This document shows, one piece after another, positions 1,218-51,506 of a stretch of DNA of 64,000 nt. The notes under the pieces are model-generated. The model searched no databases. It had not been told where the DNA came from and saw nothing but the letters and a program-made list of their open reading frames with translations. The position numbers and the translations under genes were made by a program. Source of the DNA: Candidatus Parcubacteria bacterium (lineage in GTDB: Bacteria; Patescibacteriota; Minisyncoccia; UBA6257; 2-01-FULL-56-20). The DNA is taken from assembly GCA_027450205.1 (NCBI GenBank), contig DAIDJL010000004.1, positions 204,413 to 268,412 on the forward strand, in the 5' to 3' direction. Position 1 is the first letter of the stretch. Each line of letters opens with the position of its first letter.

Positions 1218-1218
1218 T

Positions 1219-1725
1219 ATGATATCCGAGATCGTCACCATCGCCCAAAAAAAAGATGAGAAGTTCTTGCGGAGGAAAACCGTTCCGTTCGATTTCAAAA
1301 AATTCACACGCAAGGAAGTGAACGACCTGATCGTGCGCATGCGCCGCGCGATGCATCTGGCGAACGGCATCGGATTGTCCGCGAATCAGATCGGGCTTAC
1401 ATTTTCGGTGTTCGTTGCGGAGATTCCCGATGCGCAAGGCGGCACGAAATTTTATGCGGTGTTCAATCCGAAGCTGGAGAAGGCCGGCAAAGAGACGATC
1501 ACATTCGAGGAAGGATGCCTGAGCGTTCCCGGTAAATGGGGCGAGGTCACGCGTGCGGAACAGATCGTCATTTCCGGCTATAACAAAATGGGCAAGCCGG
1601 TAAAAGTGAAAGCATGGGGACTGCTCTCGCGCATCTTCCAGCACGAGATGGACCACCTGAATGGAAAGCTTTTTATCGATCGCGCAAAGAAGGTCTATAC
1701 TTCGGAGCAAACGCAAGAAAAATGA
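1219..1725 (+). CDS. def: Peptide deformylase
   Basis: All three PDF motifs are present: GIGLSANQIG, EGCLSVPG and QHEMDHLNG. Confidence 0.95.
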   Translation: MISEIVTIAQKKDEKFLRRKTVPFDFKKFTRKEVNDLIVRMRRAMHLANGIGLSANQIGLTFSVFVAEIPDAQGGTKFYAVFNPKLEKAGKETITFEEGCLSVPGKWGEVTRAEQIVISGYNKMGKPVKVKAWGLLSRIFQHEMDHLNGKLFIDRAKKVYTSEQTQEK

Positions 1726-2609: not shown

Positions 2610-2610
2610 G

Positions 2611-3240
2611 CTATTTTATTTTTTTTGCTGCCTCGAACGTTGCATTCACCGCTGCCCAATCAACGACGTTCCACCAGGCATCAATATAATCTGGGCGCTT
2701 ATTTTGATACTTCAGATAGTAGGCGTGTTCCCAAACGTCAAGGCCAAGCACCGGCGTCTGTTGATTCATGAGCGGACTATCCTGATTCGGCGTTGAGGTG
2801 ATCATGAACTTTCCGTCCTTGTCAGCCACAAGCCACGCCCAGCCGGAACCAAACACGCCCGCCGCCGCCTTAGTGAATAATTCTTTGAATTGCCCAAAGT
2901 CGCTGAACGCGGTCTTGATCTCCGCCGCCACGCGGCCGGTAGGTTCATTGCTCGCATCGGCCTTCATTGGTCCCATGGTGGTCCAAAAGAACGAATGATT
3001 GCTGTGCCCGCCGCCATGATTACGCACCGCCGTGCGGATATCCTCCGGCACCGCGCCCAGATTGCCAAGCAGCTCTTCAAGCGGCTTATCCGCCAATTCG
3101 GGATGTTTTTCAAGCGCCTCATTAAGTTTGTTCACGTACGTCTGGTGATGCTTTGTATAATGGATCTCCATCGTCTTTGCGTCGATATATGGCTCAAGCG
3201 CGTCATAAGCATACGGAAGTTTTGGGAGTTCGTATTTCAT
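2611..3240 (-). CDS. sod: Fe/Mn superoxide dismutase
   Basis: Motifs HYTKHHQTY and DVWEHAYY are present, together with the metal-ligand His/Asp pattern. It is convergent with fmt, with a 1-nt gap. Confidence 0.95.
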
Positions 3241-3264
3241 GATGTTAGTTTAAATAATTATTTG

Positions 3265-3293
3265 TTGGCTTGCGACCGCACCTCCTTTATAAT
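3265..3293 (+). promoter_or_regulatory. Sigma70-like promoter for tRNA-Gln (TTGGCT, 17 nt spacer, TATAAT)
   Basis: The hexamers were read directly, about 40 nt upstream of the tRNA 5' end. Confidence 0.3.
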
Positions 3294-3330
3294 ACATTAT
3301 ACAGGTCGTTTCGTGCCAGAGTTCGCATAT

Positions 3331-3401
3331 TGGGAGATCGTCTAACGGTAGGACAGGGGCCTTTGAAGCCCTCAATCTAGGTTCGATTCCTAGTCTCCCA
3401 G
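3331..3401 (+). tRNA. tRNA-Gln (anticodon UUG)
   Basis: It folds as a cloverleaf. The acceptor is UGGGAGA/UCUCCCA, the T-arm is CTAGG-TTCGATT-CCTAG, and the anticodon loop cuUUGaa has U33 and A37. CCA is not encoded. Confidence 0.85.
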
Positions 3402-3486
3402 CAGTCTAGTACAAGGTGTTAAACGCCCAGGAAGGGTGGGTTTATTAAGGTTAATTTTTATTCCAAAAAAGATGTAAAATTAAGCC

Positions 3487-6400
3487 ATGGAAATTAAAAA
3501 TTTCAGCTTTTTAAAAGATGAGCCTATTACCCCGGGGACGGTTGGATATTTTGAGTTTTATCATAAATATTTTTCCCCGGCCCTAAAAGATATGATTCTC
3601 TCAGATTCATGTCCCCATACTATTGGACTTTTTAGTAAATGGGGCACTGGCAAAAGTTCGATCATTGATCAATTAAAAACTGATCTCCCTAAGAATATTG
3701 CAAAAGTTTTTATTTTTGACGCTTGGAAATATCAAGAAGATTCGCTGCGCCGAACCTTTCTTATTAAATTTGAAGAATTTCTAAAAAGAGAGGGGTACAC
3801 CATTCCACTGGACGCTCTTTCTGGTTTTTATAAGAATAGGAGCAGTTCTACTTCTAGAAGTGGAAATATAAATTCCGAAAATACTGTAAAGGGCTGGCGA
3901 AGAGTGGGTGCCTTTTTCAAATCATATTGGCAGGTTTTGGTTTTTTTGGTTTTGCCCTTAGTGATTTTAGGAACTTTTAACGTATTACTTGCCTATCACC
4001 CTAGCAATGATTTTTTAATTGGGGTTAAGAATTTTTGTGTTTATTTAACGACGCTGTCGTGGTTTGTTTTCTTTTTAAAGCCAGTAGCCGATAAATTTCT
4101 AGATAAAATTAGCGGGAACATTTTCGCTTCAACCAAACAATATACAGAAATTCGCACTCAGATCGAAGAAGAGGAAAGATTGAATTCTCCCGAACAATTT
4201 GAAGCTGTTTTTAATAAACTGATCAGCCATGTTGATGATAAATTAGTGATCGTATTTGATAATATTGATCGCGTTCACGGAGATGTCGCCCTAAAAACCC
4301 TCTCAACTATAAAAACCTTTTTGGATCCAGAAGAAAAATCTAAGGTTGTTTTTGTAGTTCCTTGCGACTCGGATGCAATAAACCAACAGATTAAGGCATT
4401 TTATAAAAATGAAATCGACGAAAATTTCGACGAGTCCGAATATCTCAAAAAGTTATTCAATGTGATTATATACACTCCAGAATTCATCGACGACGATATT
4501 TATCAATACGCAAATGACCTAATCGCGGAAACTGGAGATCTTAAAGATTTACTTTCAAATGAACAAATCTTTTTAGTTATAAAATCTGCATTTAAAAACA
4601 ATCCAAGAGAAATTAAGCAATTTATTAACAATCTCATTGCTGTAATACTAGTCGTTTCTAAAAGTGAAGTTTCAGAATTATTGTTAAATTCTGATGCAAT
4701 TGGTTTTTTAGCAAAAGTTACTGTTTTGAAACAAAAATTTCCTGAAGCTTACAAAAAATTAAAGGAGAATTGGAGCGATCCACAAGGCGTATTAAGCGAA
4801 CATTCGAGTTCTAATTTAAAAGATTTTTTAACTTTAACGAGTGTTGTTACAACTAATAACGCTGAACCATATATCTATTTTAAGGCTCCACAAATAGAAA
4901 GAGATCTCAATGATTCTGTTGGTATTCGAAAAACATTAATCGAAGGAAATGTCGAAGAATTTGAAAAACTTGCCGCAACCGAAACAAAGAAAGATAAATT
5001 AATTCGTTTTATTGGCAGACTTTTATCTAATTACAAGTCTCAGCCACTAATTTTATTTCAAATTTTTAAGACACAGTTACAAGGATTGGCGGATTTAAAT
5101 GAACAAAGTTCTGCTCCAGACTTTCTCAACAACTGCATAGATGCTATTGAAGCAATTTGGAATAATTACCTGAAATTACCTCCAGGTCTGATATTTGATC
5201 TTTTAATAAAGAGCAATGATCACAAAAGGCGAGAATCAATCTTTGATCGCTATGTTCTTGCCCTAGGTACGGAAGAAATAAAGATCGAAGAAAATAAAAT
5301 ATATCTTCATGATTTAATCAATGAATTAATTAGGAATGAAAGATACCTTACTGCTACTCACCAGCTAGCAATTATGGATGCGATAAGACAAAATCTGGTC
5401 GGGCGAGACGATATTTTACTTCAATTCACCACCCTAGACATTCAAACAAAATTTATAGCTCCTGAGAATCTTAGGAGGATAATTCAAGAAGCTCTAAATA
5501 ACAGAACATTGAAGCATTATTTGGCTATTTTAGATTTATATAAAGAATATATTGGTGTTAATAACTTAGGTCCAAATCTTATCAGTCGGATACCTCAGTT
5601 GATTTCTTTAGAAAATAGCGAAATGCCGAATGCATCACCACGAAAACTTGAGTTTCACGATGCCCTTCTACAAATATTTACCAATTTTGCCAGTTATATC
5701 AAAGATATTCCTCCGGCTCAACAACAAGAAATATTCAATGGTTTGAATACTACCTATCAACAAGTCGGACAAGATCAGTCGATCCTTGCCAAGATAACGA
5801 ATTCCCTTCGTTGGCTCTCGTTAAGGACTACTGACGCTAATACAAAAACCCAGGCAGATGCAAAGGTTAATGCCTTTATATCTCAAGTCGATGGAACCGG
5901 TATGAAGTTGACCTTGAAATACTGGAGTTCAAAATCAAAGATAGCTTTTATAAATAATTACTTTGATTCCATTAAAGCGAGGGCTAATGTAGACGATTCT
6001 GTTCTTATGGAGGTATACGAAGTGGCCGATGAAAGCCAAAAAATAACTTTGATTGATTACATTATAAAAAATCGAGGCGATTCCGGTCTCGGATTCCTAC
6101 AAAAAATTGGTAACTCCCTACCGGATCGAATTAAAATTATCAACCTACTTTTATCAAAAGCTGAGGTGTTAGCCATTCAAGATAGAAAAGGTATTTTTGA
6201 CTATCTGCGAAACAAAATAGATGGAAATGATGACGCGACAGTAAAGCAGACCGCCATTAAGGAGTTCTTAAATTTCCTAAAATCTAAGAATCAAGATTTG
6301 ATTCAATTTGGTACTAGCTTGCTTAACGAACCGTTTTTGAATGATTCCGATCATAGAGAAATCACTAAAGAAATGTTGGCGTTTTACAATAACCCCCCCG

Positions 6401-6762
6401 ACATTCTTCAAAAACACGATCTTAGTTTTATTGACTATTTAATTCGGATAGAAGCGAAACTCCAAAACCCTCTAAAGGAAACTCTTGTATATTTAATTTT
6501 TAAAAATATTAGTCCAGACAGACCTTTTGAAATTATCCCCGCATTAATAGAAGATATCTCCTTGCTCAAGCCTAATTCTGATAAATATGAAAAGGATTAT
6601 AGTGATTTAATTGGGCGTGTAAGCGCATGGACTCCTCCAGATCAAAAGCTCCTCATAGTTCAGCAATTAAACGAGGCCATGAAAGGCATTCCGGGTAAAA
6701 AAACTAAGGATTATATTGCGATCCTAGAAAAACTTGTAAGTGCTGAGAAAGAAGCTAACTAA
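3487..6762 (+). CDS. KAP-family P-loop NTPase (1091 aa) with a large C-terminal alpha-helical domain
   Basis: The Walker A is KAP-type, IGLFSKWGTGKSS. Two TM helices are inserted into the NTPase domain. The Walker B is LVIVFDNIDRV. The gene is very AT-rich. Confidence 0.8.
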   Translation: MEIKNFSFLKDEPITPGTVGYFEFYHKYFSPALKDMILSDSCPHTIGLFSKWGTGKSSIIDQLKTDLPKNIAKVFIFDAWKYQEDSLRRTFLIKFEEFLKREGYTIPLDALSGFYKNRSSSTSRSGNINSENTVKGWRRVGAFFKSYWQVLVFLVLPLVILGTFNVLLAYHPSNDFLIGVKNFCVYLTTLSWFVFFLKPVADKFLDKISGNIFASTKQYTEIRTQIEEEERLNSPEQFEAVFNKLISHVDDKLVIVFDNIDRVHGDVALKTLSTIKTFLDPEEKSKVVFVVPCDSDAINQQIKAFYKNEIDENFDESEYLKKLFNVIIYTPEFIDDDIYQYANDLIAETGDLKDLLSNEQIFLVIKSAFKNNPREIKQFINNLIAVILVVSKSEVSELLLNSDAIGFLAKVTVLKQKFPEAYKKLKENWSDPQGVLSEHSSSNLKDFLTLTSVVTTNNAEPYIYFKAPQIERDLNDSVGIRKTLIEGNVEEFEKLAATETKKDKLIRFIGRLLSNYKSQPLILFQIFKTQLQGLADLNEQSSAPDFLNNCIDAIEAIWNNYLKLPPGLIFDLLIKSNDHKRRESIFDRYVLALGTEEIKIEENKIYLHDLINELIRNERYLTATHQLAIMDAIRQNLVGRDDILLQFTTLDIQTKFIAPENLRRIIQEALNNRTLKHYLAILDLYKEYIGVNNLGPNLISRIPQLISLENSEMPNASPRKLEFHDALLQIFTNFASYIKDIPPAQQQEIFNGLNTTYQQVGQDQSILAKITNSLRWLSLRTTDANTKTQADAKVNAFISQVDGTGMKLTLKYWSSKSKIAFINNYFDSIKARANVDDSVLMEVYEVADESQKITLIDYIIKNRGDSGLGFLQKIGNSLPDRIKIINLLLSKAEVLAIQDRKGIFDYLRNKIDGNDDATVKQTAIKEFLNFLKSKNQDLIQFGTSLLNEPFLNDSDHREITKEMLAFYNNPPDILQKHDLSFIDYLIRIEAKLQNPLKETLVYLIFKNISPDRPFEIIPALIEDISLLKPNSDKYEKDYSDLIGRVSAWTPPDQKLLIVQQLNEAMKGIPGKKTKDYIAILEKLVSAEKEAN

Positions 6763-8089
6763 TTTCATCGAGCATAATAGTTTTTTCGATTAAAACTAAC
6801 TTTGATTTGATTGTATTTAATAGTTTCCTCTTTTCGGGTATCGATCCATCTTCAAGAATATATTTGCTGTAATTTCTAATATCGATATCTTTAGCTCTGC
6901 AATCTTCGATCGATCGACCAAGAATATTGAAGTGGAATTTTTTATGTCGCTCAATTTCCAATTCAAGGTTTTTTCTGATGCCAGATCGATCTAAATCAAT
7001 TTTATTGATTAATTGAACCAATTGGTTAATTAGAGAGCGTTCTTCAATATAGAATTCCTTACAATTAATGTCCTTGGCACGGGTACATCCATAGTAAATA
7101 TATTTTGAGACTTCTCCATTTTTAAGTTTTTTATATTTATCCTGCGCCGTAACCCCTGAGCCACATTTCCCACAAAACATTAATTTCGTAAAAGCGAATT
7201 CCTTGTTAACTCTCGGCGCCTTCCGCTGAAGATCTAGCTGCTCCTGCGCTTCGTCAAAAAGCTCTTTAGAGATGATCGGCTGATGTTTGCCCTGATACCA
7301 TCTTCCGCTTCCCCGTGGATATTCAAATGTGCCGTGATAGAAATGATTATTAAGCAACGTGTAGACATTGCTAATGGTAAATGACTTTCCGTTTCGTGAT
7401 ACAAAGCCCGTTTCTTTGAGCCAGCGATATATCTTCCGGCCACTCCAGCCACCGTGAGCTACTTTCGTAAATATCTCTTTCACGATAGGAGCGCGGATCG
7501 GATCGAGGAATATCTGTCCTTTCTGGTCGACGTTCTTTGAGTTGAAATATCCCGTGGGAGCAACCGACGGCCAGAGTCCCATCTCGCACTTTGTTTTGAG
7601 CCCTCGCTTCACATTGATGCTCTTGTTGTCATTCTCTAGCTTTGCTTGAGAACCGAGAATCATGAGCAGGAATTTCTCGTTTGGATTATTCGTAAATCGC
7701 TGGCTGTGGGTTTTGATTTCGATGAGCTTCTTTTGGTCGAGAAGATCAACGAGGGCGCCGAGGTCACCGGCGTTACGACTCAAACGATCGGGATGCCACA
7801 CAAGAATGGCGTCGAACTTCCCCTCCCGGATATCCGCGAGGAGCTTATTGAATACTGGGCGCTGCCCACAGTCTTTGGCCGAGTGGGATTCCTTATAAAT
7901 GTCGATTACGTTCAAATTGTCCCGTTGGGCCACAAGTAGCATCTCTTTGGTCTGGGAATCGATCGACAAGGCCTGTTTTTCCTCCGCCTCGCTCGATTTA
8001 CGGGCATACAGGCAGTATTGGAGGGGTTGTGCCGTAACTGGCTGTGGACCGCTTATTTGGGCTCCCTGCAGTGGTGTTGTATATTCCAT
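6755..8089 (-). CDS. Large serine recombinase (resolvase/integrase family)
   Basis: A YARKSS catalytic-Ser region, a DRLSRN motif, a recombinase domain and a C-terminal zinc ribbon (CGKCGSG...YYGC) are present. Its 3' end overlaps the KAP gene convergently by 8 nt. Confidence 0.9.
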   Translation of the reverse strand: MEYTTPLQGAQISGPQPVTAQPLQYCLYARKSSEAEEKQALSIDSQTKEMLLVAQRDNLNVIDIYKESHSAKDCGQRPVFNKLLADIREGKFDAILVWHPDRLSRNAGDLGALVDLLDQKKLIEIKTHSQRFTNNPNEKFLLMILGSQAKLENDNKSINVKRGLKTKCEMGLWPSVAPTGYFNSKNVDQKGQIFLDPIRAPIVKEIFTKVAHGGWSGRKIYRWLKETGFVSRNGKSFTISNVYTLLNNHFYHGTFEYPRGSGRWYQGKHQPIISKELFDEAQEQLDLQRKAPRVNKEFAFTKLMFCGKCGSGVTAQDKYKKLKNGEVSKYIYYGCTRAKDINCKEFYIEERSLINQLVQLINKIDLDRSGIRKNLELEIERHKKFHFNILGRSIEDCRAKDIDIRNYSKYILEDGSIPEKRKLLNTIKSKLVLIEKTIMLDEIS

Positions 8090-8154
8090 ACCAACAACAA
8101 AGCCCGAGGCAGGTTTATAAGTCCAGCGGGCGAAGTGGATAACTTACTAAGCGG

Positions 8155-8829
8155 CTAAAGTGGTTTGGTGAGGGGTAAACCTTCAGACATTATATAAGTT
8201 AAAAATTCTCTCCCGAGAGGGGTGATAGTCGCCATGCCGGTAGTCTGCCATTCTTCAACTGGGGGCAAAGCCACAAGACCAGCATTCTTAAGATAATTTA
8301 AGTAGTCGGCGAACGGATAATTCCTGATTGTTGGATATTGCACTGCGGCATTCATATAAAACTGAGTTGCGTTAACTATCCTCATGCCGGCGGGAGTAGC
8401 GTTAAGCAGAGACAATAAGCTAAGCTGGCTGCCAAAAATATTACTATAGATCCTTTCAAACAATGTCTTCTTCCCTTGCTGAAGTAGCGCACCTTGTAAT
8501 TGAGCTATGCTGGTGCGCAAGCTTTCAGTAGACGCCTCGCTGTTCCTTTGTTCTTCAATTGGAAATGTTTCCACGCCTGAAGATCCTATTGATTTTATTC
8601 TCCGAATAAAAAGATCAACTGCCTCTTTATGTCCAAGCAAAATCAATAGGAAAATAATTAAGATTACGGCGGGCCATGAACTGAGAATTAATTTAAGATA
8701 GGTATCTAATATTTTCGAAATTTCTAAAATTTGCTGATGATAAAGTTTTCCGAAGACCACCAAAATAAAGGCGAGCAGGCCGGGATACCAGCTCGCCTTC
8801 AAAAAGCTTTTAACACCAGATCGTACCAT
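8155..8829 (-). CDS. Hypothetical membrane protein (2 N-terminal TM helices plus a soluble C-terminal domain)
   Basis: The ORF lies 52 nt downstream of the XRE gene on the same strand. It is AT-rich. Confidence 0.5.
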   Translation of the reverse strand: MVRSGVKSFLKASWYPGLLAFILVVFGKLYHQQILEISKILDTYLKLILSSWPAVILIIFLLILLGHKEAVDLFIRRIKSIGSSGVETFPIEEQRNSEASTESLRTSIAQLQGALLQQGKKTLFERIYSNIFGSQLSLLSLLNATPAGMRIVNATQFYMNAAVQYPTIRNYPFADYLNYLKNAGLVALPPVEEWQTTGMATITPLGREFLTYIMSEGLPLTKPL

Positions 8830-8881
8830 GCTTAAAGCATAAACCTAAACCGCCGAATTGTTAAAGTCGATGGAGATACTT

Positions 8882-9103
8882 TTACTTCAAAAAATATGAA
8901 ATCGGCTTCCCGTAAAGCTGAGCAAAGCGCTTGAGCTCGATCACATCAACCCGTTGCTGGCCTGATTCAATGTTTGAAATATGAGACTGCGGCCTGCCAA
9001 TTTTCTTTGCAGCCTGCACCTGAGTAAGGCCGGCGTCGAGTCGGGCTTTGCGCAAACGCTCCACAAAATAGGCATATTCCTTAGTCTGGATTGACTTGGT
9101 CAT
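8882..9103 (-). CDS. XRE-family HTH transcriptional regulator (Cro/CI-like)
   Basis: The motif LTQVQAAKKIGRPQSHISNIESGQQ is a classic XRE helix-turn-helix. Confidence 0.85.
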   Translation of the reverse strand: MTKSIQTKEYAYFVERLRKARLDAGLTQVQAAKKIGRPQSHISNIESGQQRVDVIELKRFAQLYGKPISYFLK

Positions 9104-9114
9104 TACCTCAACGC

Positions 9115-9149
9115 TATATCCAGACTTTCAATATCCAAACTTTGGATAT
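9115..9149. promoter_or_regulatory. Operator-like site: a 9-1-9 perfect palindrome ATATCCAAAcTTTGGATAT plus an upstream half-site ATATCCAGACTTT
   Basis: The site lies 12-46 nt upstream of the XRE start codon, in a divergent intergenic region. Confidence 0.4.
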
Positions 9150-9237
9150 TATGCTAAGCTAGCGGAAAAGGGCCTTAAAACCGGAGTGGATAACTCTGAC
9201 TTGCAATTACCTGGACGTAAGCTCAAATGCAAAAGCT

Positions 9238-9510
9238 ATGAAAATAACCCTTAAGAAAGTTCTGTGGTTCGCCGCGTTCTGGGCTGTATTTCTGCTTGGT
9301 TGGTGGCGAGGCTGGCAACAGAGTCCTGATGCTACCCTGCTTCGGCAGGCATCGGGATTACAAGCGCAAATCGATAAATGCACGCTGGTAACTCAAAAAG
9401 CATGCTCGGATATAGAAGCCCAAGATAAAACACTGATTGAACTGGGCGCTCCGCCCTCACAGGTAACACTTCATTGTTCCTCAAGTTCACTATCTCAACC
9501 CCTCGAATGA
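9238..9510 (+). CDS. Small hypothetical membrane protein (90 aa, N-terminal TM)
   Basis: It has a hydrophobic N-terminus and is AT-rich. Confidence 0.35.
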   Translation: MKITLKKVLWFAAFWAVFLLGWWRGWQQSPDATLLRQASGLQAQIDKCTLVTQKACSDIEAQDKTLIELGAPPSQVTLHCSSSSLSQPLE

Positions 9511-9707
9511 TCATGAAAGCTATCACGAAAAAATGGATTGAACTTATAGTCGCAGCCACAATCCTCTATTGGATTGTTTCAGGGAGCGACGATCGCCAGC
9601 TTCTTATAGGATGTGCAATCGGGATTATTGTGCTTCTCTTTAAGGACACGATTCGAGATGAGTTCAAAAAAGCTCGCGAAGACGACAGACCAAATTATTC
9701 TCCCTGA
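9507..9707 (+). CDS. Small hypothetical membrane protein (~66 aa, 2 TM)
   Basis: There is an ATGA start/stop overlap with the previous ORF. The longer 9474 start overlaps that ORF. Confidence 0.35.
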   Translation: MIMKAITKKWIELIVAATILYWIVSGSDDRQLLIGCAIGIIVLLFKDTIRDEFKKAREDDRPNYSP

Positions 9708-11056
9708 AGAATGAACTTTACCGCTTCATCTGCCCGCTTTTCGAAATTTGGATCGACTTCCTCAAGAAGATCAAAATATCGGTATCCTAACTTTTCGGCA
9801 CGACTTCTGAGCAGCTTATTCAATGGAATTGTTTCGGTTGTTTCTCGTTCAACATCACGTCGCACGGCCTCTTCTCCACGAGTAAGGATATCGCGATAAA
9901 CATAGCTTTTTTCTTTTACCTTTTTCGCATAATCAATTCTTGCCTGGGCATGTGAAGGACTGCTGTAACCAATAAAAATTGGTCGGATCTCAAAATTTTT
10001 AAGCTCTAAATCGCTTATATTCTCTGGGGTTATGGCTACGCCCTCCAAAAGCAAATCTGGTCCCATACGATGATGGTCGTAATATTTAATCAATCCTAAG
10101 CTAGCCTTCCATGCAAAATAATCTTCGCCCTGATCCCCGGATTCAAATCGGACATCTTCACTCGTAGGAGTTGTTGCTAAGACTTTTATATTAGCCGTTG
10201 CAACTCCTGCCTTGCTCATGAAAAAAGTTTGATTAACGGTCCCGCGAACCCCATCAGTTTCAACGGATATTAATGAGAGGTCGTCCTTAGTTTCGTCTTT
10301 TATAACGATGGGCGCCAATAAATCCCCCTCAACTTTTCCCTGGGAGATCATATCAAAAGGTTTCAGATGCGCTTCAAAAACAATTTGTTTGAAAGTTTTT
10401 GGGTCTTCGCCAACAAGCACGCTACGCAAGCCGGCCAAAATCGCCTCACGAGTGAGCGGAATTAACTTATGATGTTCTTCGATCTTTTCTCGTATGTAAC
10501 TTTTTCCAGCTTTAGCGTAACCTCCAATTAAATAAAGACGCCTCTTTCTCTTTGGTATAGGTTGCCATTCATTTTTCTTGAGATCGCTTTTTGATATTTC
10601 AGAATTACTAATAGCGCCACAGTTGGGGCACACGGCAACAATTTTGCGGGGACCTCGCGGATCCCATCCTTCGACAAATTGAAGCCATAGTTTTGCGGAC
10701 GATGAAGCTCCCGATTTTTTACCAATTGCCTTCATCCGAAGTGCTTCCAAAACTTGAACCGTATATTCCTTATACCGCATGACGATCTGCCCGAGATATC
10801 TATTCCGGGCAGCTTCCCAATCAATTTTTCTGTTCCAATCCGTAAGGGTGCCAAGGTCTTTTATCCCGAATCGCTGGGCGAACTGTGTTTGAGTTTTTAT
10901 CCCTTCCAACTCTTTAAGTAAGGGGTCGTCATGTCCGTGCTGCTCAAGAATTTCTGCAGGAAGTCCCCGATACCCCGATGGAAGCATATTCCACAAGACG
11001 TAAAGCTCAAATTCTCGCTTTTTGTAAGGTGTGCGGTTTTTGGCATTTATTGGCAT
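9695..11056 (-). CDS. Hypothetical protein with an N-terminal HTH-like region, a CPNC zinc ribbon and a P-loop (GGYAKAGKS) kinase/NTPase-like domain
   Basis: The GxxxxGKS Walker A was read directly. There is an hhhhEG Walker-B-like LLLEGV. No confident family assignment is possible. Confidence 0.5.
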   Translation of the reverse strand: MPINAKNRTPYKKREFELYVLWNMLPSGYRGLPAEILEQHGHDDPLLKELEGIKTQTQFAQRFGIKDLGTLTDWNRKIDWEAARNRYLGQIVMRYKEYTVQVLEALRMKAIGKKSGASSSAKLWLQFVEGWDPRGPRKIVAVCPNCGAISNSEISKSDLKKNEWQPIPKRKRRLYLIGGYAKAGKSYIREKIEEHHKLIPLTREAILAGLRSVLVGEDPKTFKQIVFEAHLKPFDMISQGKVEGDLLAPIVIKDETKDDLSLISVETDGVRGTVNQTFFMSKAGVATANIKVLATTPTSEDVRFESGDQGEDYFAWKASLGLIKYYDHHRMGPDLLLEGVAITPENISDLELKNFEIRPIFIGYSSPSHAQARIDYAKKVKEKSYVYRDILTRGEEAVRRDVERETTETIPLNKLLRSRAEKLGYRYFDLLEEVDPNFEKRADEAVKFILQGE

Positions 11057-11130
11057 TTGTATTTATTGTACATCCTCCACCAAAGCATTTGCTAGCAGTA
11101 TTAGCGAAGCGTAGAATAGGCATACCTCTC

Positions 11131-11712
11131 ATGAAAAAGATCAATCTTAAATGGCAAAAAGAGGCACTTCTTAAAAGCGCGAAGGCTATCGCGACCTCCG
11201 CGGAAACTTATGTTATCTTTGCTCTCGTCCTTCTCCTCTGGCGATTTGCCGCAGGGATGAAATTCGAGCTGCATAATATTGATCCGTTTTCAACTCCCAC
11301 CTTTTTTGAGCGGTCGTTCTATAGCGCGATCACCTTTTTTACGACCGGGCGGATCTTATATAAGTTAGGCTTCTACAAATTACTTTGGGAACTCATTCAA
11401 GATTGGCGTGATTACGTTGCGATAAAAGGAATTATCTGGGTGATATTAATGGGCATATCATACGAATACATAGTTCCGTGGGCATTCGATATTTTGAACG
11501 GCATATCATCTTTGCTTTTCAACATAGCCAATTTCGCATTGTATATGACCCCACCGATTGGGATAGCGGCTATTTTGAGCGCCATCTATTTTATCTATAA
11601 GCCGGATCCGGTAGTGCTTGATGTTAGAATGGAGCCTGACCAGGAGGGGTTGCCAATACCCATCCCCCTACCCTCAGAAGTGCCCGTGAACACTGATATC
11701 TACAACGACTAG
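11131..11712 (+). CDS. Hypothetical integral membrane protein (4 predicted TM)
   Basis: Start chosen at MKKINLKW. The longer ORF from 10978 overlaps the upstream gene. Confidence 0.45.
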   Translation: MKKINLKWQKEALLKSAKAIATSAETYVIFALVLLLWRFAAGMKFELHNIDPFSTPTFFERSFYSAITFFTTGRILYKLGFYKLLWELIQDWRDYVAIKGIIWVILMGISYEYIVPWAFDILNGISSLLFNIANFALYMTPPIGIAAILSAIYFIYKPDPVVLDVRMEPDQEGLPIPIPLPSEVPVNTDIYND

Positions 11713-11790
11713 ACCAGAGTACGCAGCCGACAAACGCCAAGTTGTTTGGCGAGAAAATCTGTTTCGTTTTGTCACATACCCGAACCTTGA

Positions 11791-14295
11791 TCAGGGCAGC
11801 TGCGGGATCGGAAGGTTCAGCGACGGGCACATAATCATATTGATCAAGCGCTGGGTTGTCTTATAGACATAGCCCGTCGGGGCAACGGCGTTCACCAACC
11901 CATGCGGAACCCAGGGAGCAAGGACATCGCTGGAATATTTCAATTGGAACTGGCGCACGGCCGCTTCAGATACCGGACCATAATAGCCGCTGATCGGGAT
12001 ATTCAAGCCGAGCTCTTTGTTCAAGAACACCTGCAGCTTCATCACTTCCACGGGATCGTTCTGCCCGTTCGCGTACCGCGCCGGCGTGATGTATCCCGTC
12101 AGATAATATCCGCATGTCGTGCTGGCGCCGAGTACCTGGCCCTGCTCCGCCGGAGGTGCCGTTACCACGATCGGCGCGGGTGCGGTAGTGGAAGCTCCAA
12201 GCACCAATCCCTGGCCGATCGGCGCCAATCGCCCTCCGGCGGCGACCCCTACGGTCGCTCCGCCGCCTCCGCCGGTATTATTGTTGCCGTTGGTTCCATC
12301 ATTGCTTCCGCCGCTCCGCACGACGACCGTCACAGAAGAAGTGTTGTCCTCGGGGGTCGGATCCGTAAAGCTGCCGAGCGTGCTTGATACCGTCGCGGTG
12401 TTCACGATCGTATTTCCCGCCTCTCCCTGCCCCACTGTCATTGCGATGGTCATCGTCGCTGTTGCGTGGGGTTCCAGCGTTCCCACCTCCCAATTTACGC
12501 CGTTGCCGACAAGGGCAAGTGATCCCTGAGAAGATGTCGCATTCGCAAAGGTCAGCGCCGTCGGCCACGTATCATTCCCCGTCACGAACGCCGCCGGGGC
12601 ATCGCCGCTGTTTTCAACCATGATGGAATACACAATGCCCGTTCCGGGATCGGGATTCGCATTGTCCACCGCCTTGCTCACGGCAAGATCCGGCCCGATC
12701 GTACCACCCCCGCCGCTTATCACCGGAAGCGTGATGCTGGAACTATTATTGGAAAGATTCAGATCTTCGCTCCATTCATCGCCGGCAACGGAGGCCGTGT
12801 TCGTAATGGCAGATGCGTCGATTCCCGGGTCCACAAGAGCGGAAAGATCAAGCGTCGCGCCGGAACCGGCGGAGAGGGTTCCGATCAGCCACGCGCCCGT
12901 CGAGCTTTCATAGCTGCCGATCGATGTGGTCGCATTCATGAACATGAGCCCATCCGGCAGGAGGTCCTCCGCTGTAATACCGGTAGAAGTTGCCGGGCCG
13001 AGGTTCGCGACCGCGATCCGATATCGAACGATGCTCCCCGGAGCCGTCGATGTCGCCTCGGCGGTCTTTTCCACAGAGAGATCGGCCTGCGGTATGATCA
13101 TCGGCCCGCTGAACACCGCCACGATCGTGCTTCCGGTCGTCGCCGAATCAATGGAGAAGGAACAGGAAGTCGACGTCGCGCCGGCGCACGGGCCCGTACT
13201 CCATAGCGCGAACGTGGAACTCGCATCCGGCGTGGCGAAGAGAGTCACAGGCGTTCCGATAGCGAACACCTGCATACAAACGGACGAGGTCGCATCGGCG
13301 GAATCGCAATAGATCGTTCCCGAGGCATCCGTAATGACGCCGTCCCCGGTGCCGCCCGTGGCAACCGTAAGCGCATAGGTTTGGATCCCGAATGCGGCAC
13401 TCACTTCGGCATCCGCCGACATTGTGACCGTGCAGACGCTGGATGTCCCGGCCGACGCACATGCGCCGCCCCATCCTTCAAATGTCGATGTGGGAACGTC
13501 GGGGCTCGCCGTAAGCGTCACCGTAGCATCCTTCGGGAAGTTCGCCGTACAGACCGCGCCCGCCGTGCCGCACGAGATCCCTGCCGGATCGCTCGCTATC
13601 GTTCCGGTCCCTTCACCCGTGGTGGTGGCCGTCAGAGTGCGGGTGGGACCCGATATGAACCGGACGTCGATCGTGTGATCGTCTGTGATATCGGTAAAGG
13701 TATAAGAATCCGCGGTCGTGGTGGAAACGCCGTCAATAAGAAGGGCGCCTACCGTTCCCCCGCCCGACGGAACCATCGTAAAGGTCTGATCGCCGTGATA
13801 CCCGACGGTCATGGTGCCAGCCGGAGCGATCGTCCCGCCGTCCCCCGCCACGGCGACGATCCTTGGACGAACCGTCACGGTGGTCGTTGCCGCGGCATAC
13901 TGTTCGTTATCCTCGCTCACTTCGCCGTGATAGGCCATTGCCGTCACGATATATTCCCCCGGTCCGGCATACGTATGCGTCGCGGACCATGTCGCGGAAA
14001 ATGTTTTCGGAGAGGCACTGGATGAAACGATGACAAAGTCGCTCACGGGAACCGTACGCCCGCCGTCGCCCCAATCCGTCACGCCAACATGAACGGCACT
14101 CAGCGAACCTGTATATGGGTTCGCTCCCGCCGTTCCTTGAAGGGTCACCGTCCGTTCAGGCTCGTCCAAGACTGTTGAAGCGATGTCTATGGAGTAGTTC
14201 ACCGGGATCGCAAAAACCGAAAGCGCGGGTGCTACCGCACCCCCCACAGCAACGGCGCCGAATATGATCAAATTAAAAACAAGTTTTTTGTTCAT
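11791..14295 (-). CDS. Large secreted cell-surface protein. It has a signal peptide, a PKD-like domain, several InlB-type B-repeat domains (C..C..F.GW.G.C motifs), DUF11-like repeats and a C-terminal peptidoglycan-binding domain.
   Basis: The N-terminal signal is MNKKLVFNLIIFGAVAV. Repeated modules are Gly/Thr/Ala-rich. The C-terminus KLQVFLNKELGLNIPISGYYGPVSEAAVRQFQ resembles PG_binding_1. Confidence 0.7.
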   Translation of the reverse strand: MNKKLVFNLIIFGAVAVGGAVAPALSVFAIPVNYSIDIASTVLDEPERTVTLQGTAGANPYTGSLSAVHVGVTDWGDGGRTVPVSDFVIVSSSASPKTFSATWSATHTYAGPGEYIVTAMAYHGEVSEDNEQYAAATTTVTVRPRIVAVAGDGGTIAPAGTMTVGYHGDQTFTMVPSGGGTVGALLIDGVSTTTADSYTFTDITDDHTIDVRFISGPTRTLTATTTGEGTGTIASDPAGISCGTAGAVCTANFPKDATVTLTASPDVPTSTFEGWGGACASAGTSSVCTVTMSADAEVSAAFGIQTYALTVATGGTGDGVITDASGTIYCDSADATSSVCMQVFAIGTPVTLFATPDASSTFALWSTGPCAGATSTSCSFSIDSATTGSTIVAVFSGPMIIPQADLSVEKTAEATSTAPGSIVRYRIAVANLGPATSTGITAEDLLPDGLMFMNATTSIGSYESSTGAWLIGTLSAGSGATLDLSALVDPGIDASAITNTASVAGDEWSEDLNLSNNSSSITLPVISGGGGTIGPDLAVSKAVDNANPDPGTGIVYSIMVENSGDAPAAFVTGNDTWPTALTFANATSSQGSLALVGNGVNWEVGTLEPHATATMTIAMTVGQGEAGNTIVNTATVSSTLGSFTDPTPEDNTSSVTVVVRSGGSNDGTNGNNNTGGGGGATVGVAAGGRLAPIGQGLVLGASTTAPAPIVVTAPPAEQGQVLGASTTCGYYLTGYITPARYANGQNDPVEVMKLQVFLNKELGLNIPISGYYGPVSEAAVRQFQLKYSSDVLAPWVPHGLVNAVAPTGYVYKTTQRLINMIMCPSLNLPIPQLP

Positions 14296-22481: not shown

Positions 22482-23903
22482 TTATCGACGTGGATAACGG
22501 CTAGAACTTGAACCTGGCCGACGTGGGCCACCGTAGCCTCCTGGCTTGTGGAACGGCTTGCGGGCAGGGCCGCCACCAACCGATGATGGATGATGCCCGG
22601 AAGAGCTATATGAAGGCTTTGAAATCCCATAGGAGGGCCTGTTGAATGCCGGACGATGTGACGACCCGTATGAAGGCCGTGCGCCATCCGACGGTGCGCC
22701 TGCTCCGCCGCGCCGATAGGGCGTGAATTCTCGTGGAACATATTGTTCCGCGCGCGCCGGCGGCAACTCCGGAGTTTTGGAAAGCGGCAACTTTATGCGC
22801 ATCAGGCGCTCGATGCTATACACATCACCCCGTTGATCCGGCGTGGCAAACGAGATCGCATGGCCAGTGGCGCCGGCGCGGCCCGTGCGGCCTATGCGAT
22901 GCACATAATCTTCCGGATTGTCGGGAAGGTCGTAATTGATGACAAGCTCGATCCCCTTTACATCGATGCCACGCGCAGCGATATCCGTCGCAACGAGCAC
23001 GCGATATTTGCCGTTCTTGAATCCGTCCAGCGCTTCACGGCGCTGACTGAGCGAGCGATTGGCATGGAGTTCGGCTGCGGTGTGGCCGAGCGCGCGGATA
23101 GACGCGGCGATCTTCTTCGCACCGTGCTTGGTGCGCGAAAACACAAGCACCGATCCGCGATAATCGTATAGCAACTTTTCAAGTAGGCGCGACTTATCGT
23201 TCTTAGCAATAAAATACAATTCTTGCGCGATCTTTTCGATGGCGGTACCCGGCGGCGCGATCTCGATACGCAATGGTAATTTCATGTACGACTGCGCCAA
23301 GGAGAGAATGCTCTGCGGCATCGTTGCCGAAAAGAGCATCGTCTGCCGCTCCCGCGGGACGCCCACCATAATGCGCTTCAGCTGCGGCGCAAAACCCATA
23401 TCGAGCATGCGATCCGCCTCATCAAGCACCAGCATGTTGGTTTTATTCAAATTTAACGTCTTTTGCTGCATATGATCCATGATCCGTCCCGGCGTGCCGA
23501 TGATGATCTGCGGCAGCCGGTGGATCGCCTGCACCTGGCGATAATTGGACTCTCCGCCCACCAAAAGCGCCGTCCGGATGCCAAGCGGCCCGCCAACCTT
23601 CGCGATCGTCTCCTGGACCTGCAGGGCCAATTCCCGCGTAGGAAGGATAATGAGCCCATGCTTACCCGCAAGTGCGGCTTGTATCAAGGGGATGCCAAAA
23701 GCCAGCGTCTTTCCGGTGCCGGTCTGCGCAAGCCCCATCACATCTTTTCCCTCGATGCCCATTGGGATAGCCTTCGCCTGTATCGGCGTGGGGGTCTTGA
23801 ATCCAAGCTTATCCAGAATAGTTAAAATATTGGGCGCGATGCCCAATCCGTAGAACCCTTGACCTGAACTTGAAGATGTTTCCATGTGCGCTAACCATAA
23901 CAC
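22482..23903 (-). CDS. DEAD-box ATP-dependent RNA helicase with a Gly/Arg-rich C-terminal tail
   Basis: The Q motif (TPTPIQ), AQTGTGKT, PTRELA, DEAD (VLDEADRM), SAT and HRIGRTGRAG are all present. The probable start is METSSS at 23885. Confidence 0.9.
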   Translation of the reverse strand: MLWLAHMETSSSSGQGFYGLGIAPNILTILDKLGFKTPTPIQAKAIPMGIEGKDVMGLAQTGTGKTLAFGIPLIQAALAGKHGLIILPTRELALQVQETIAKVGGPLGIRTALLVGGESNYRQVQAIHRLPQIIIGTPGRIMDHMQQKTLNLNKTNMLVLDEADRMLDMGFAPQLKRIMVGVPRERQTMLFSATMPQSILSLAQSYMKLPLRIEIAPPGTAIEKIAQELYFIAKNDKSRLLEKLLYDYRGSVLVFSRTKHGAKKIAASIRALGHTAAELHANRSLSQRREALDGFKNGKYRVLVATDIAARGIDVKGIELVINYDLPDNPEDYVHRIGRTGRAGATGHAISFATPDQRGDVYSIERLMRIKLPLSKTPELPPARAEQYVPREFTPYRRGGAGAPSDGARPSYGSSHRPAFNRPSYGISKPSYSSSGHHPSSVGGGPARKPFHKPGGYGGPRRPGSSSSRYPRR

Positions 23904-24009
23904 AGAAGGCCGATAATAGCTATTATTTTAAGAGTGAGCGCGCTTGAGCCATTTCGCTTATTATTATAGGCGTGTTATAAAGACACTAGATTCATGTGGA
24001 GGAAAATCT

Positions 24010-24120
24010 ATGGAATGGGCGCCTGAAGTCATTGAATATTTTATCTCTCTTCGCCGTCAAATTGAACAAGGACGAACAAAAGAAGCCATGACCTCGCTTG
24101 ACCACCGACGAAACGATTAA
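24010..24120 (+). CDS. Small ORF (36 aa) with a GGAGG RBS and a downstream terminator
   Basis: GGAGG lies 7 nt upstream of the ATG. A terminator hairpin follows at 24147-24172. Confidence 0.25.
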   Translation: MEWAPEVIEYFISLRRQIEQGRTKEAMTSLDHRRND

Positions 24121-24146: not shown

Positions 24147-24172
24147 GGGGCATCGAAAATGCCCCTTTTTTA
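24147..24172 (+). terminator. Rho-independent terminator (GGGGCATCGAAAATGCCCC followed by a T-run)
   Basis: Read directly. Confidence 0.4.
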
Positions 24173-24186
24173 TTCCTGTTCGCGGG

Positions 24187-24303
24187 GTTGCTGTTATTCT
24201 GGGCTTTTGAAAGGCGTCTCGGAGCCGCGAAGGTGGCGAGAGCCGAGGCGGCCAGCCAGCAGGTTGGAACGCCGTACTTTCAAAAGCCCAGAATAACAGC
24301 AAC
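24187..24303. ncRNA. Unclassified structured element, copy 1. A conserved 63-nt core (24214-24276) is enclosed by a 27-bp perfect stem, extendable to ~30 bp.
   Basis: The stem GTTGCTGTTATTCTGGGCTTTTGAAAG/CTTTCAAAAGCCCAGAATAACAGCAAC encloses a core that is 53/63 identical to copy 2. Internal hairpins show compensatory changes. Confidence 0.45.
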
Positions 24304-24524
24304 CCCCCACTCGGGTCGAAAGCGAGGGAGGGTTTGCTCTATTTATGCATGATATATTTTATTCCTCTATTCATTCCGCCCTCTGGCGGCCCATATATTT
24401 CTGTGATTTTTTATTTTCCGCGACCTTTATCCCCCTTTTTTGCGCCGGCAATCTGTTTATGATGGCCGGTTCATGAGTTAATACATCATCTCATTTTCTT
24501 TATTTCACTTCCTTCCGTAAATGA

Positions 24525-25211
24525 TCACTGATAATCCACGATCTTCTCCACGCCGGATGCCTGGATGGTGGCGGTCGCAACGCCGCGGCCGAAAATAAGC
24601 ACGTAATCCCCGGGGCTAAGCCCTCCGATTTCCGGCGACGCCATCGGCACCAGGAGCACGGTCGAGGTCTGACCCCTCCCGTTCACTAAAATAAAACTGC
24701 TTGTGGCAAGCACCAGAACCTGCCCCCGATATACGCCGCTCATCGGCGCGGTATCGAACTCATAGACCCCCGTTACCACCGGGATATAACTTTTTGAAAC
24801 ATAATGGAATATCCCTCCCTGGAGAGAAGTTCCCGGAAGCAGGAAAATAGCGGTGATCGATACGACAACGACAAGGATCAGCAGGGTGTAGAGGAGCGGT
24901 TGATGATATACGATCGCGTAGCGCCGGAGCAGAACCCAAAGAATGAGCAAAAGCGCGATCGAAAGCGCCAATATGGTCCATGGTAACGATTCAAAGAATA
25001 TCTCCCATCCACCGGGACCAAAATTGGTCGCAAAAATACCTCCGTTCTCCTGGAGGGCGAAGATGATGAATGTGGTCAGAAAAAGGACGACGAAAAACAC
25101 CGCCACCGCGCCAATTATGGCAAGCGCCGAACGCACGATGAAATATGCCCGCGGGCGCATTTTTGCGCCTCCGCTCTTTATGGTATTGATAACTTTGTCG
25201 CCGCTTTCCAT
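24525..25211 (-). CDS. Putative anti-sigma factor (membrane protein) downstream of the ECF sigma. Start chosen at MESGDK, but it could be 25277.
   Basis: It overlaps the 3' end of the sigma gene and has several TM segments. Confidence 0.45.
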   Translation of the reverse strand: MESGDKVINTIKSGGAKMRPRAYFIVRSALAIIGAVAVFFVVLFLTTFIIFALQENGGIFATNFGPGGWEIFFESLPWTILALSIALLLILWVLLRRYAIVYHQPLLYTLLILVVVVSITAIFLLPGTSLQGGIFHYVSKSYIPVVTGVYEFDTAPMSGVYRGQVLVLATSSFILVNGRGQTSTVLLVPMASPEIGGLSPGDYVLIFGRGVATATIQASGVEKIVDYQ

Positions 25212-25224
25212 TTTTTTGCTGATA

Positions 25225-25803
25225 TTATTCTGTAACGATTTTTTTAAGCATAGCTCTGCCCCGCTGTAGCCGAACACCGACCGTGGATATCGGGATGTGT
25301 AAAATATCGGCTATCTCGCGATAGTCCATATCCTCAAAATAGTACAGCACGAGAGGTTCTTTGTATTTGGCGTTCAGCTTGCTGAGCGAGCCCTCGAGCA
25401 TTCGTTTTACCTCCGTATTGTTAACGCCGTCATCGGCGCTCTCTTTTGCGATAAGGTGGGGAATGAGCACATCAAAATCGAAGATGGAGACATTTTCCCG
25501 CTCCTTCTGCCGTCGCTTGATATTGTTCACGAACTCGTTATGCGCAATGCGGTAAATCCATGGCGAAAACCGCCGGGAGGCGTCAAAACTCCGGATGTTC
25601 ACGTAGGCCTTTATGAAAACCTCCTGCACGAGATCTTTGCCTTCGTCACCATCAAAGAAAAACCGTTTCGCGTAGCGGGTCATCTTCGGCTCATAACGTT
25701 CCACGAGCAACCGAAACGACTCAATGTCGCCTTTCTGCACTTGAACAGCGACCTCCTCGTCATTCCTCTCGCGTGTTTTTGTCGTCTCAGGCATCTCAGG
25801 CAT
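25225..25803 (-). CDS. ECF-type RNA polymerase sigma factor
   Basis: Sigma-70 region 2 (DLVQEVFIKAY) and region 4 (YREIADILHIPISTVGVRLQRGR) are present. Confidence 0.85.
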   Translation of the reverse strand: MPEMPETTKTRERNDEEVAVQVQKGDIESFRLLVERYEPKMTRYAKRFFFDGDEGKDLVQEVFIKAYVNIRSFDASRRFSPWIYRIAHNEFVNNIKRRQKERENVSIFDFDVLIPHLIAKESADDGVNNTEVKRMLEGSLSKLNAKYKEPLVLYYFEDMDYREIADILHIPISTVGVRLQRGRAMLKKIVTE

Positions 25804-42585: not shown

Positions 42586-42622
42586 AAAAAGGCGCCAGGC
42601 ATCCAAAAGGATGCCTGGCGCC
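42586..42622 (-). terminator. Rho-independent terminator (14-bp stem GGCGCCAGGCATCC/GGATGCCTGGCGCC, loop AAAA, then a T-run on the minus strand)
   Basis: Read directly. It follows the stop of 42638..42877. Confidence 0.6.
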
Positions 42623-51493: not shown

Positions 51494-51506
51494 TTTTCAG
51501 AAAAGA

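Follow-up and report, generated by a model that had tools for sequence, protein, structure and literature searches.

The REP/REPIN-RAYT system of bacteria consists of short, non-coding hairpin repeats that are dispersed between genes, mostly at gene 3' ends, that carry compensatory changes in their stems, an orientation bias and no known target-site duplication, and that are thought to act as folded single-stranded DNA (ssDNA) and to have been co-opted as hairpins at mRNA 3' ends. Our analysis concerns an element that resembles these repeats in each of these respects. It occurs twice (copies 1 and 2) in a 64,000-nucleotide stretch from a Candidatus Parcubacteria bacterium (contig DAIDJL010000004.1; the whole of this stretch is called the window), and in both places a conserved core is enclosed by a long, perfect stem. 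The explanation that we favour, and which we hold to be about evenly poised between right and wrong, is that the two loci belong to a dispersed family of non-autonomous, mobile hairpin repeats specific to a peat and soil group of Patescibacteria (of the Paceibacteria type within the candidate phyla radiation, CPR). Unlike REP/REPIN sequences, which are units of 20-40 nt and inverted doublets, the element has a branched core of 59-65 nt and a variable stem. No GTAG head of the REP kind is present in alignments A2 or A3 of the family, and no gene for RAYT, the IS200-like HUH (Y1) transposase that mobilises REP/REPIN repeats, was found in the flanks, of up to 15 kb, around the copies; to our knowledge, inverted duplication of the flank is not a feature of REPINs.

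Miniature inverted-repeat transposable elements (MITEs, derivatives of DDE transposons) such as Correia (CREE/NEMIS), RUP and BOX share with the element a length of ~100-150 bp, complementary ends, a non-autonomous nature and a high copy number. Like it, they are co-transcribed with their neighbours and fold into long hairpins, open to cleavage by RNase III and able to terminate transcription. They differ in having terminal inverted repeats common to the whole family, whereas here only the innermost ~11 nt are widely shared and the outer ends differ; in having a target-site duplication (TA for Correia), whereas none is present in the filled and empty alleles of L004 and L122 (handles of this form denote the loci that we collected); and in interiors without the structure-preserving covariation that the internal region here shows. 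Because it has no GTAG-headed unit, no family-wide terminal repeats and no target-site duplication, the element is a member of neither group, although its closest counterparts in mode of action are REP/REPIN and hairpin MITEs (Correia, for example).

Four further systems invite comparison. Hairpins produced by template switching (PMC8794818) are alike in their perfect stems, in multi-base, compensated differences between orthologues and in sharp-ended inverted copies of adjacent sequence; template switching is, however, a mutational process and not a repeat family, and it leaves the conserved core and the spread to new loci unexplained. Integron attC sites and other folded-ssDNA substrates are mobile, keep structure over sequence and, as would be the case here, carry their function in a folded single strand, but attC conserves the base of the hairpin (the R and L boxes) and varies at the apex, which is the opposite layout, and there is no integrase context around our copies. 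Bidirectional intrinsic terminators also stand directly after stop codons and tRNA 3' ends, form a stable hairpin on both strands and are flanked by A-rich sequence on the 5' side and T-rich sequence on the 3' side, as part of the copies are; unlike intrinsic terminators, the element has stems of 27-33 bp (vs ~14 bp in the window), a conserved 63-nt apex and a strong T-run in ~15% of copies. The lack of a duplication fits the palindromic elements (PATE) derived from IS200/IS605, but one symmetric hairpin takes the place of two different subterminal hairpins, and no common target motif was seen by eye at the junctions of aligned pairs, where PATE insert 3' of a fixed 4-5 nt target. Searches of the literature, whether on the topic or for the core sequence itself, turned up no account of the element, and among described bacterial repeats we are aware of none whose core is a covarying three-way junction and of none that duplicates its target flank in inverted form.

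Patescibacteria have genomes of ~0.7-1 Mb with very little non-coding DNA, and despite these tiny genomes some lineages carry the ~120-bp element up to once per 3-5 kb. It joins an unusual trio of features: a branched core with covariation as strong as in a genuine structured RNA, polymorphism of insertion and loss, and stems made from inverted copies of gene or tRNA ends, in places extending into coding sequence and providing the stop codon.

Fold and family of the conserved core

Copy 1 has 63 nt enclosed by 30-bp arms that are 100% complementary; copy 2 has 61 nt enclosed by arms that are 94% complementary over 31 nt, with a perfect portion of 26 bp (58044-58069 / 58131-58156). The original prediction of two loci with a conserved core inside a long perfect stem therefore describes a real feature, with a core of 61-63 nt and a perfect stem of 26-30 bp; its figure of 53/63 identical core positions becomes 54/63 when counted on the alignment. 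A 22-nt pattern from the core matches the window twice, against 0.00 matches expected from shuffles, and the two copies are the only inverted repeats of at least 25 bp in the window. Their fold energies are -75.8 kcal/mol (copy 1) and -67.0 kcal/mol (copy 2), with z-scores of -10.7 and -9.6. A covariance-model search of the window with filters off found no further copy, the next best match scoring 12.8 bits. Ordinary terminator-like hairpins in the window have 14-bp stems (42591-42622 and 51468-51497), and no other long, empty hairpin pre-exists in this genome's window, where the longest other stems measure 14 bp. The outer stems are indeed copy-specific, as had been proposed, and copies 1 and 2 have only ~5-6 bp of inner arm in common.

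The fold is a three-way junction of a long outer stem, P1, with two inner arms, P2 and P3; the junction strands are 0, 1 and 3 nt long, and the core spans 59-65 nt across the family. P2 begins right after P1. Its first pair covaries (C-G 45, U-A 33, A-U 13), and divergent copies covary too in the otherwise invariant CUC/GAG segment, which together fix its register. Within P2 lies an internal loop of GGA opposite GA, followed by P2a, a 5-bp hairpin capped by GAAG; a single A (J2/3) leads to P3, composed of 4 bp, a G/AA or A bulge and 6-7 bp with an AGYA cap, and GU plus one nucleotide (J3/1) leads back to P1. The P2a hairpin, first drawn with four pairs, is better drawn with five around a GAAG loop (GCCGC/GUGGC in copy 1, GGUAC/GUGCC in copy 2); where three covarying pairs had been claimed for it, the copies differ by a double compensatory change at one pair and by wobble-mediated single changes at two. 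The supposed closing helix 'aaag/cttt' is aaagg/ccttt, the inner, family-conserved portion of P1.

Covariation extends across the family. In a MAFFT alignment of 44 copies (A2) with a hand-drawn structure, 94.2% of cells are paired and the covariation score is 0.60, compared with 0.18 in shuffles (0/500 reach the observed value) and 0.08-0.13 with slid partners. Among 98 model-aligned copies, 95.1% of cells are paired, 30 of the 32 pairs have changed on both sides, and the score is 0.576 (shuffles 0.181, 0/500; slid partners 0.07-0.11); this second alignment was fitted to the model, and the MAFFT alignment A2 agrees with it. A conserved, structured core with covariation is thus supported across ~149 copies. 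One subfamily (L001, L006, L009, L015, L086, L120 and L126) carries a hairpin insertion of 22-25 nt (GCGACUCUUAGGAGUCCCGYGGGAG) in the 3' strand of P3, where it replaces the 3' strand of the upper P3 helix and leaves the 5' strand (CCAGCCAG or CCGGUCAG) unchanged.

The copies were gathered in three ways. An exact-pattern scan of one genome per species returned 11 loci, eight of which are true homologues, all in Patescibacteria (labelled Paceibacterota, Minisyncoccia and, for L011, Saccharibacteria, with two unclassified genomes of ~0.7-0.9 Mb); the other three (L002, L003 and L005) are chance matches. A separate pattern from the 5' half of the core returned 118 metagenome loci, mostly from peat or bog, with L016 and L030 as chance matches. 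A covariance model (R1), built from 44 diverse copies and used on the collected loci together with nhmmer, raised the total to ~149 copies in Patescibacteria genomes and peat metagenomes, many of them without either search pattern. Because homologues were reached via two exact patterns, the diversity and taxonomic range of the family are underestimated. Copy density reaches four in 12.6 kb (L128) and three in 11 kb (L097). A viral origin was considered and rejected: the sole IMG/VR match (L130) lies in G+C-rich coding DNA, is not recognised by the covariance model and is due to chance. Metagenome assemblies can be chimeric at repeats; L047, whose 5' arm is that of the L104 copy and whose 3' arm is that of the copy in L090, is either a recombination between copies via the conserved core or an assembly chimera of this kind.

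The core, which the original prediction could not match to a riboswitch or ribozyme class, matches no family of Rfam 15, those of SRP, 6S and 5S RNA and of group II domains included. A scan of the whole window with Rfam 15 at gathering thresholds reported two tRNAs and a LOOT RNA elsewhere and nothing at copies 1 or 2. At E<=10, the interval 24150-24340 gave generic long-hairpin matches only (mir-2788, 28 bits vs a threshold of 62; VA RNA, 28 vs 62), and at E<=1 the interval 56900-58250 gave no match. The element is thus not reassigned to a known family, and its flanks form a hairpin in all relatives. Several specific candidates were also tried and rejected. Domain IV of the signal recognition particle RNA (AGCCAAGGC in common) and 5S rRNA (GCGAGAG...GCCAG in common) are not collinear with the fold and give no covariance-model match; the GA/AG geometry is wrong for a kink-turn in both registers; the CUGAUGA or GAAA core of a hammerhead is absent and the junction strands are nearly empty; the nested P1/P2 order of ribozymes like that of hepatitis delta virus is absent; and group II domain V gives no match and has the wrong bulge. 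A retron or diversity-generating retroelement was set aside, as the reverse-transcriptase context is absent and ~149 copies are dispersed.

Outer stems, and gain and loss of the hairpin

Stem statistics were compiled from 108 unique pattern-bearing copies, 83 of which have an ungapped stem of at least 20 bp. These long stems have a median length of 30 bp (interquartile range 27-33 bp, maximum 55 bp); 44 of the 83 are perfectly Watson-Crick, and 96% of their pairs are Watson-Crick and 1.6% G·U. The innermost ~11 bp of P1, about one helical turn, are conserved throughout the family (YTTTGARRGG / CCYYTCAAAR). Between non-orthologous loci, arm identity ends at sharp boundaries, most commonly after 2, 5 or 11 nt; the longest sharing extends over 18-19 nt (CCTTTCAAAAGCATGTGCC, at four different loci) and 25 nt (L063/L094), and no outer arms common to unrelated loci (16 of 21 outer positions) were found. 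The sharp boundaries and the lack of common outer arms indicate that part of the stem is borne by the element and the remainder is local: inner arms of ~11-25 bp travel with the core, and the rest of the 27-33 bp near-perfect stem is specific to the locus. In the 5' arm of copy 1, the innermost ~11 nt (CTTTTGAAAG, then G at 24214) are conserved in the family and the outer ~19 nt are common only to orthologous loci. Four orthologues of copy 1 (L031, L117, L121 and L124) have the same stem base and tip, with a middle that is different yet fully compensated.

In many copies the local portion is an inverted duplicate of the adjoining flank. At the fusA loci, the arm on the side away from the gene repeats the end of fusA as a decaying inverted copy. 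The arms of L135 measure ~73 nt, with 43 nt inside the fusA coding sequence, a sharp outer end and a 10-nt mismatch patch, and the same arrangement is visible in L008. A 60-aa 'gene' called at L135 4726-4908 (minus strand), ending ...NNVAQQIKWWKKR*, is the palindrome-made, decayed inverted copy of the fusA end, and this open reading frame (ORF) is most likely spurious. Beyond the far arm of L107, 17 nt repeat in inverted form the final 10 nt of a tRNA together with its trailer; the empty allele, L036, does not have this copy. In L107, 8 nt of the other flank have also been duplicated into the arms. When L062 and L097 are compared with L125, the last 12-14 nt of the gene, including its stop codon, are found copied in inverted form, again with an empty allele that does not have the copy. 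Collinear inverted similarity beyond the near-perfect stem is significant in 18 of the 83 copies, against 1% expected, and mean arm identity exceeds the control to ~60 nt. In L118, L027, L100 and L129 a minus-strand tRNA abuts the other arm and a T-arm-like sequence lies upstream of the copy; ARAGORN and Rfam find no tRNA upstream of these four copies or of copy 2, and to judge from their sequence the T-arm-like stretches of the four loci look like decayed inverted copies of the tRNA 3' end.

Orthologous flanks were matched by BLAST in 90 comparisons, and the element is absent in 20 of them, at ~ten loci. In L004 and L037 a ~107-nt unit with 24-bp arms occupies the 23S-5S spacer and is absent from L122, with flanks that are ~97% identical; base-by-base comparison of L004 with L122 (insertion CGATCTG...CAGATCTC) reveals neither a target-site duplication nor any direct repeat. 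In the further filled and empty pairs (L020/L084, L034/L056, L056/L052, L107/L036 and L062+L097/L125), arms of 24-35 bp arrive with the core, and no target-site duplication was seen in these alignments, whose junctions were not checked base by base. These comparisons show that gain and loss involve the complete hairpin. To this extent they uphold the proposal of a small inserting element, but not its insertion into a pre-existing hairpin, as most empty alleles have no matching hairpin; in the orthologous comparisons, arms of 14-35 bp come with the core or derive from an inverted copy of the flank. Two cases might be read as an element occupying an existing terminator loop: L014 and L053 have the same outer arms (AAATAAAAACACCC/GGGTGTTTTTATT) and different apices, and L137 has a plain terminator after fusA with arms similar to those of L135. 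Both are ambiguous, because the L053 apex could be the remnant of an element.

Every one of the 16 sampled fusA loci with the search pattern has the element after the gene, and so does L135 (EF-G 89% identical to that of L036); loci with an EF-G of 84% (L136) and 79% identity (L137) lack it. A synteny-based empty site for copy 2 was sought and abandoned, the gene order around the neighbouring inositol monophosphatase gene not being conserved, and four relatives with an inositol monophosphatase 74-80% identical to that one have no copy within 26 kb. Two observations were made at the rRNA loci. A small hairpin of the 23S-5S spacer, adjoining the insertion site of the polymorphic copy (L004 775-800 and, as the reverse complement, L122), is kept by compensated changes (TTTCTGAT-CTACA-ATCAGAAA in L004, TTCTTTAT-CTACA-ATAAAGAA in L122). 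The 23S rRNA matches of L004 (350-405), L045 and L056 begin or break off inside the model, at positions ~2498-2652, next to sequence that does not align, so that the 23S genes of these genomes may contain insertions or introns.

Proposed mechanism and rival explanations

The orientation of the copies relative to their neighbours bears on what the element does. Minus-strand ORFs of at least 100 aa end in or at the 3' arm in 33 cases, and plus-strand ORFs end at the 5' arm in 14; nine of the ten tRNAs that abut P1 downstream (23-30 nt; seven anticodon types) lie on the minus strand. From these positions, and those at fusA, the core is usually, though not always, antisense to the gene that it follows. 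Recurrent neighbours are housekeeping genes only (fusA at 16 loci, secY, adk, ssb, dnaB and rpsM). In rRNA operons the spacer copy is sense in L004 and L122 and antisense in L056, and the copy downstream of 5S in L045 is antisense; adjacent copies in opposite orientation occur in L004, L067, L107 and L128. A replication-strand cause of the orientation was rejected, the GC-skew signal being weak (43 vs 25 loci, p=0.04) and contradicted by the opposite adjacent copies and by the two orientations in rRNA spacers. The distal 3' arm is T-rich (T 0.32-0.38 vs A 0.17-0.21) and the distal 5' arm A-rich. G·U pairs make up ~1.6% of cells, with G·U vs A·C at 21 vs 15 in the A2 core and 40 vs 21 in P1; structured RNA families are usually several-fold richer in G·U. 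Since G·U is barely above A·C, the constraint looks nearly strand-symmetric, which would fit either a DNA strand that folds (or a cruciform) or a requirement that both transcripts fold. The functional RNA of the original prediction therefore retains its covarying structure but is not established, given that G·U pairs are scarce, with a frequency close to that of A·C, and that orientation to transcription varies.

We propose that intra-strand template switching at the hairpin, in the course of replication, would build the outer stem of the mobile repeat and keep it perfect by copying one arm or flank onto the other; there is documented precedent for template switching both as the origin of perfect hairpins and as the process that maintains them (Mönttinen and Löytynoja, 2022; PMC8794818). 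Selection would act on pairing in all four helices and on the loop sequence, nearly equally for both strands, and the selected form would more likely be a folded ssDNA needed for copying than a transcript of one strand. This folded strand might be recognised by some structure-specific enzyme, or might itself promote strand switching. Resident copies would serve as very stable 3' hairpins, acting as a bidirectional terminator, an insulator or an RNase III processing stem; those in the 23S-5S spacer must be co-transcribed. Several observations weigh against the mobile repeat as we describe it. No sequence-specific terminal repeat is conserved within this genome beyond the few inner base pairs common to the window copies, and clustering of 1013 ORFs in flanks of up to 15 kb revealed no transposase or recurrent non-housekeeping protein near the copies. 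Some 'empty' alleles differ by extra filler sequence, so that deletion instead of insertion is not always excludable. Loop nucleotides are nearly invariant and the helices covary even among orthologous copies at the fusA site, a pattern that also fits a host function under purifying selection in place. On the plus strand, 79% of unpaired positions are purines, and among non-canonical pairs G·A/A·G outnumber U·C by 58 to 3, which is typical of a folded RNA read from that strand. Finally, a strong T-run (at least 6 T in 12 nt at the stem edge) is found in only ~15% of copies, so a role as a classical intrinsic terminator is not general.

The element might instead be a multi-copy host non-coding RNA, in which a mature unit of ~85-90 nt (the core and ~11 bp of inner P1) is co-transcribed with its neighbours and excised, the outer stem being a sequence-independent processing stem for RNase III. 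We regard this, the main rival and a serious one, as possible though doubtful. The strong covariation, the invariant loops, the purine-rich unpaired nucleotides and G·A pairs of one strand and the inner P1 of about one helical turn all argue for it, as do the sense-oriented spacer copy of L004 and L122, which is certainly transcribed, and the fusA-site copy, which is kept, with compensated changes, in 16/16 pattern-carrying fusA loci and L135. It sits poorly, however, with a core that is antisense to the abutting gene in most clear cases (fusA, nine tRNAs, 33 vs 14 ORFs) and antisense in the rRNA operons of L056 and L045, with the position of copy 1 directly behind a plus-strand terminator without room for a promoter, with G·U pairs that are very rare and not favoured over A·C, with the frequent turnover of presence and absence, and with the four close relatives that have no copy in 26 kb. 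The invariant, purine-rich internal loops and compact three-way junction could also belong to a new small self-cleaving ribozyme or other catalytic RNA in a long P1, and many copies in association with mobile DNA are common for small ribozymes; this reading of the sequence is nevertheless very improbable, given no Rfam ribozyme match even at E<=10, junction strands that are almost empty, the absence of the hammerhead core motif and a near strand-symmetric constraint that argues against a single active RNA strand.

The gene-end locations could instead reflect a bidirectional intrinsic terminator that is not mobile and has an elaborate, vertically inherited apex, with presence and absence due to loss only. 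Copies do stand at gene and tRNA 3' ends with stop codons within their arms, the 5' arm is A-rich and the 3' arm T-rich, L137 has its plain terminator with similar arms after fusA, and L014 and L053 share outer terminator arms. We consider this account improbable, however, as few copies have the strong T-run defined above and copy 1 has the opposite polarity (left arm T-rich, right arm A-rich). Near-identical cores are also found at many unrelated loci, in the Saccharibacteria-labelled L011 as well as in Paceibacterota, unrelated loci have inner arms in common up to sharp boundaries, and the rRNA spacer holds a clean 107-nt insertion. A bolder proposal makes the core itself the active module, a folded ssDNA or RNA that would drive its own copy-and-paste through a polymerase strand switch or a structure-specific enzyme, making its hairpin from the inverted 3' end of a gene; alternatively, the plus-strand core would be a new class of RNA released by RNase III. 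We think this unlikely. Were the active module real, it would be a mobile element that builds terminators and processing stems and rewrites gene ends, and its transposition would leave an inverted, not a direct, duplication of the target.

The mobile hairpin repeat that we favour would have wider uses. It offers a natural system for the study of how long perfect hairpins arise and stay perfect through template switching, and a route to studying the birth of terminators and processing stems, and it points to structure-dependent mobility by a new mechanism or enzyme in a phylum that is uncultured. The covariance model would improve the annotation of CPR genomes, help to flag assembly chimeras that possibly arise at repeats, and explain spurious small ORFs and 'tRNA-like' fragments beside the element.

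The window copies and their surroundings

Table 1. Parts of the two copies of the element in the window.
Feature	Position	Strand	Remarks
Copy 1, P1 5' arm	24184-24213	+	30 nt, 100% complementary to 3' arm
Copy 1, core (three-way junction)	24214-24276	+	covariance model 98.4 bits, E=5e-23; covariation
Copy 1, P2	24215-24245	+	GGA/GA internal loop 24221-24223 / 24238-24239; hairpin GCCGC-GAAG-GUGGC 24224-24237
Copy 1, J2/3	24246	+	A
Copy 1, P3	24247-24273	+	AGCA loop 24258-24261
Copy 1, J3/1	24274-24276	+	GUA
Copy 1, P1 3' arm	24277-24306	+	30 bp with 5' arm
Copy 2, P1 5' arm	58039-58069	+	31 nt; perfect portion 58044-58069
Copy 2, core	58070-58130	+	covariance model 98.7 bits, E=4.5e-23
Copy 2, P2	58070-58100	+	hairpin GGUAC-GAAG-GUGCC
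Copy 2, P3	58102-58128	+	AGUA loop
Copy 2, P1 3' arm	58131-58161	+	followed by T-rich run GTTTTTCTT

Both copies had been placed between convergent genes. This is correct for copy 2, which lies between an inositol monophosphatase gene (plus strand; product 76% identical to a protein named Candidatus Taylorbacteria) and a 558-aa gene (minus strand), but not for copy 1, which has minus-strand genes on both sides, a DEAD-box-like ORF (22482-23903) and a 250-aa ORF (24525-25277). To the left of copy 1, the plus strand holds only an unverified 58-aa ORF (23944-24120) and a terminator-like hairpin at 24147-24172 (GGGGCAT-CGAAA-ATGCCCC, then T6), which ends 12 nt before the copy; a T-run at the position of this hairpin is present in orthologous loci too. 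Both window copies lie on the strand in which G is rarer than C.

To the right of copy 1, a block of ~50 nt (24307-24360, plus strand; CCACTCGGGTCGAAAGCGAGGGAGGGTTTGCTCTATTTATGCATGAT) is almost invariant in L031, L117, L121 and L124, where the left flank is not alignable; it has no Rfam match and could be a promoter, a leader or another small RNA. Just to the left of copy 2, and right after the stop codon of the inositol monophosphatase gene, lies a T-arm-like stretch (58013-58033, plus strand; GGTTACGGCGTTCAAATCCCTAC) that is not a tRNA according to ARAGORN or Rfam and that resembles, in inverted form, the T-arm of the tRNA at 61336-61410 (minus strand), 3.2 kb away. A similar pseudo T-arm in L129 is an inverted copy of the tRNA-Glu abutting its other arm. 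Insertion of two secreted-protein genes and of the LOOT RNA may account for the distance between copy 2 and the tRNA at 61336-61410. This LOOT RNA (RF03000; 61069-61190, minus strand) is full-length, scores 53.2 bits vs a gathering threshold of 46.4, and is located 146 nt downstream of the tRNA on the same strand. At the other end of the window, positions 1-12000 have a G+C content of 0.41-0.43 vs 0.51-0.57 in the remainder, and may be an island or a region of different origin.

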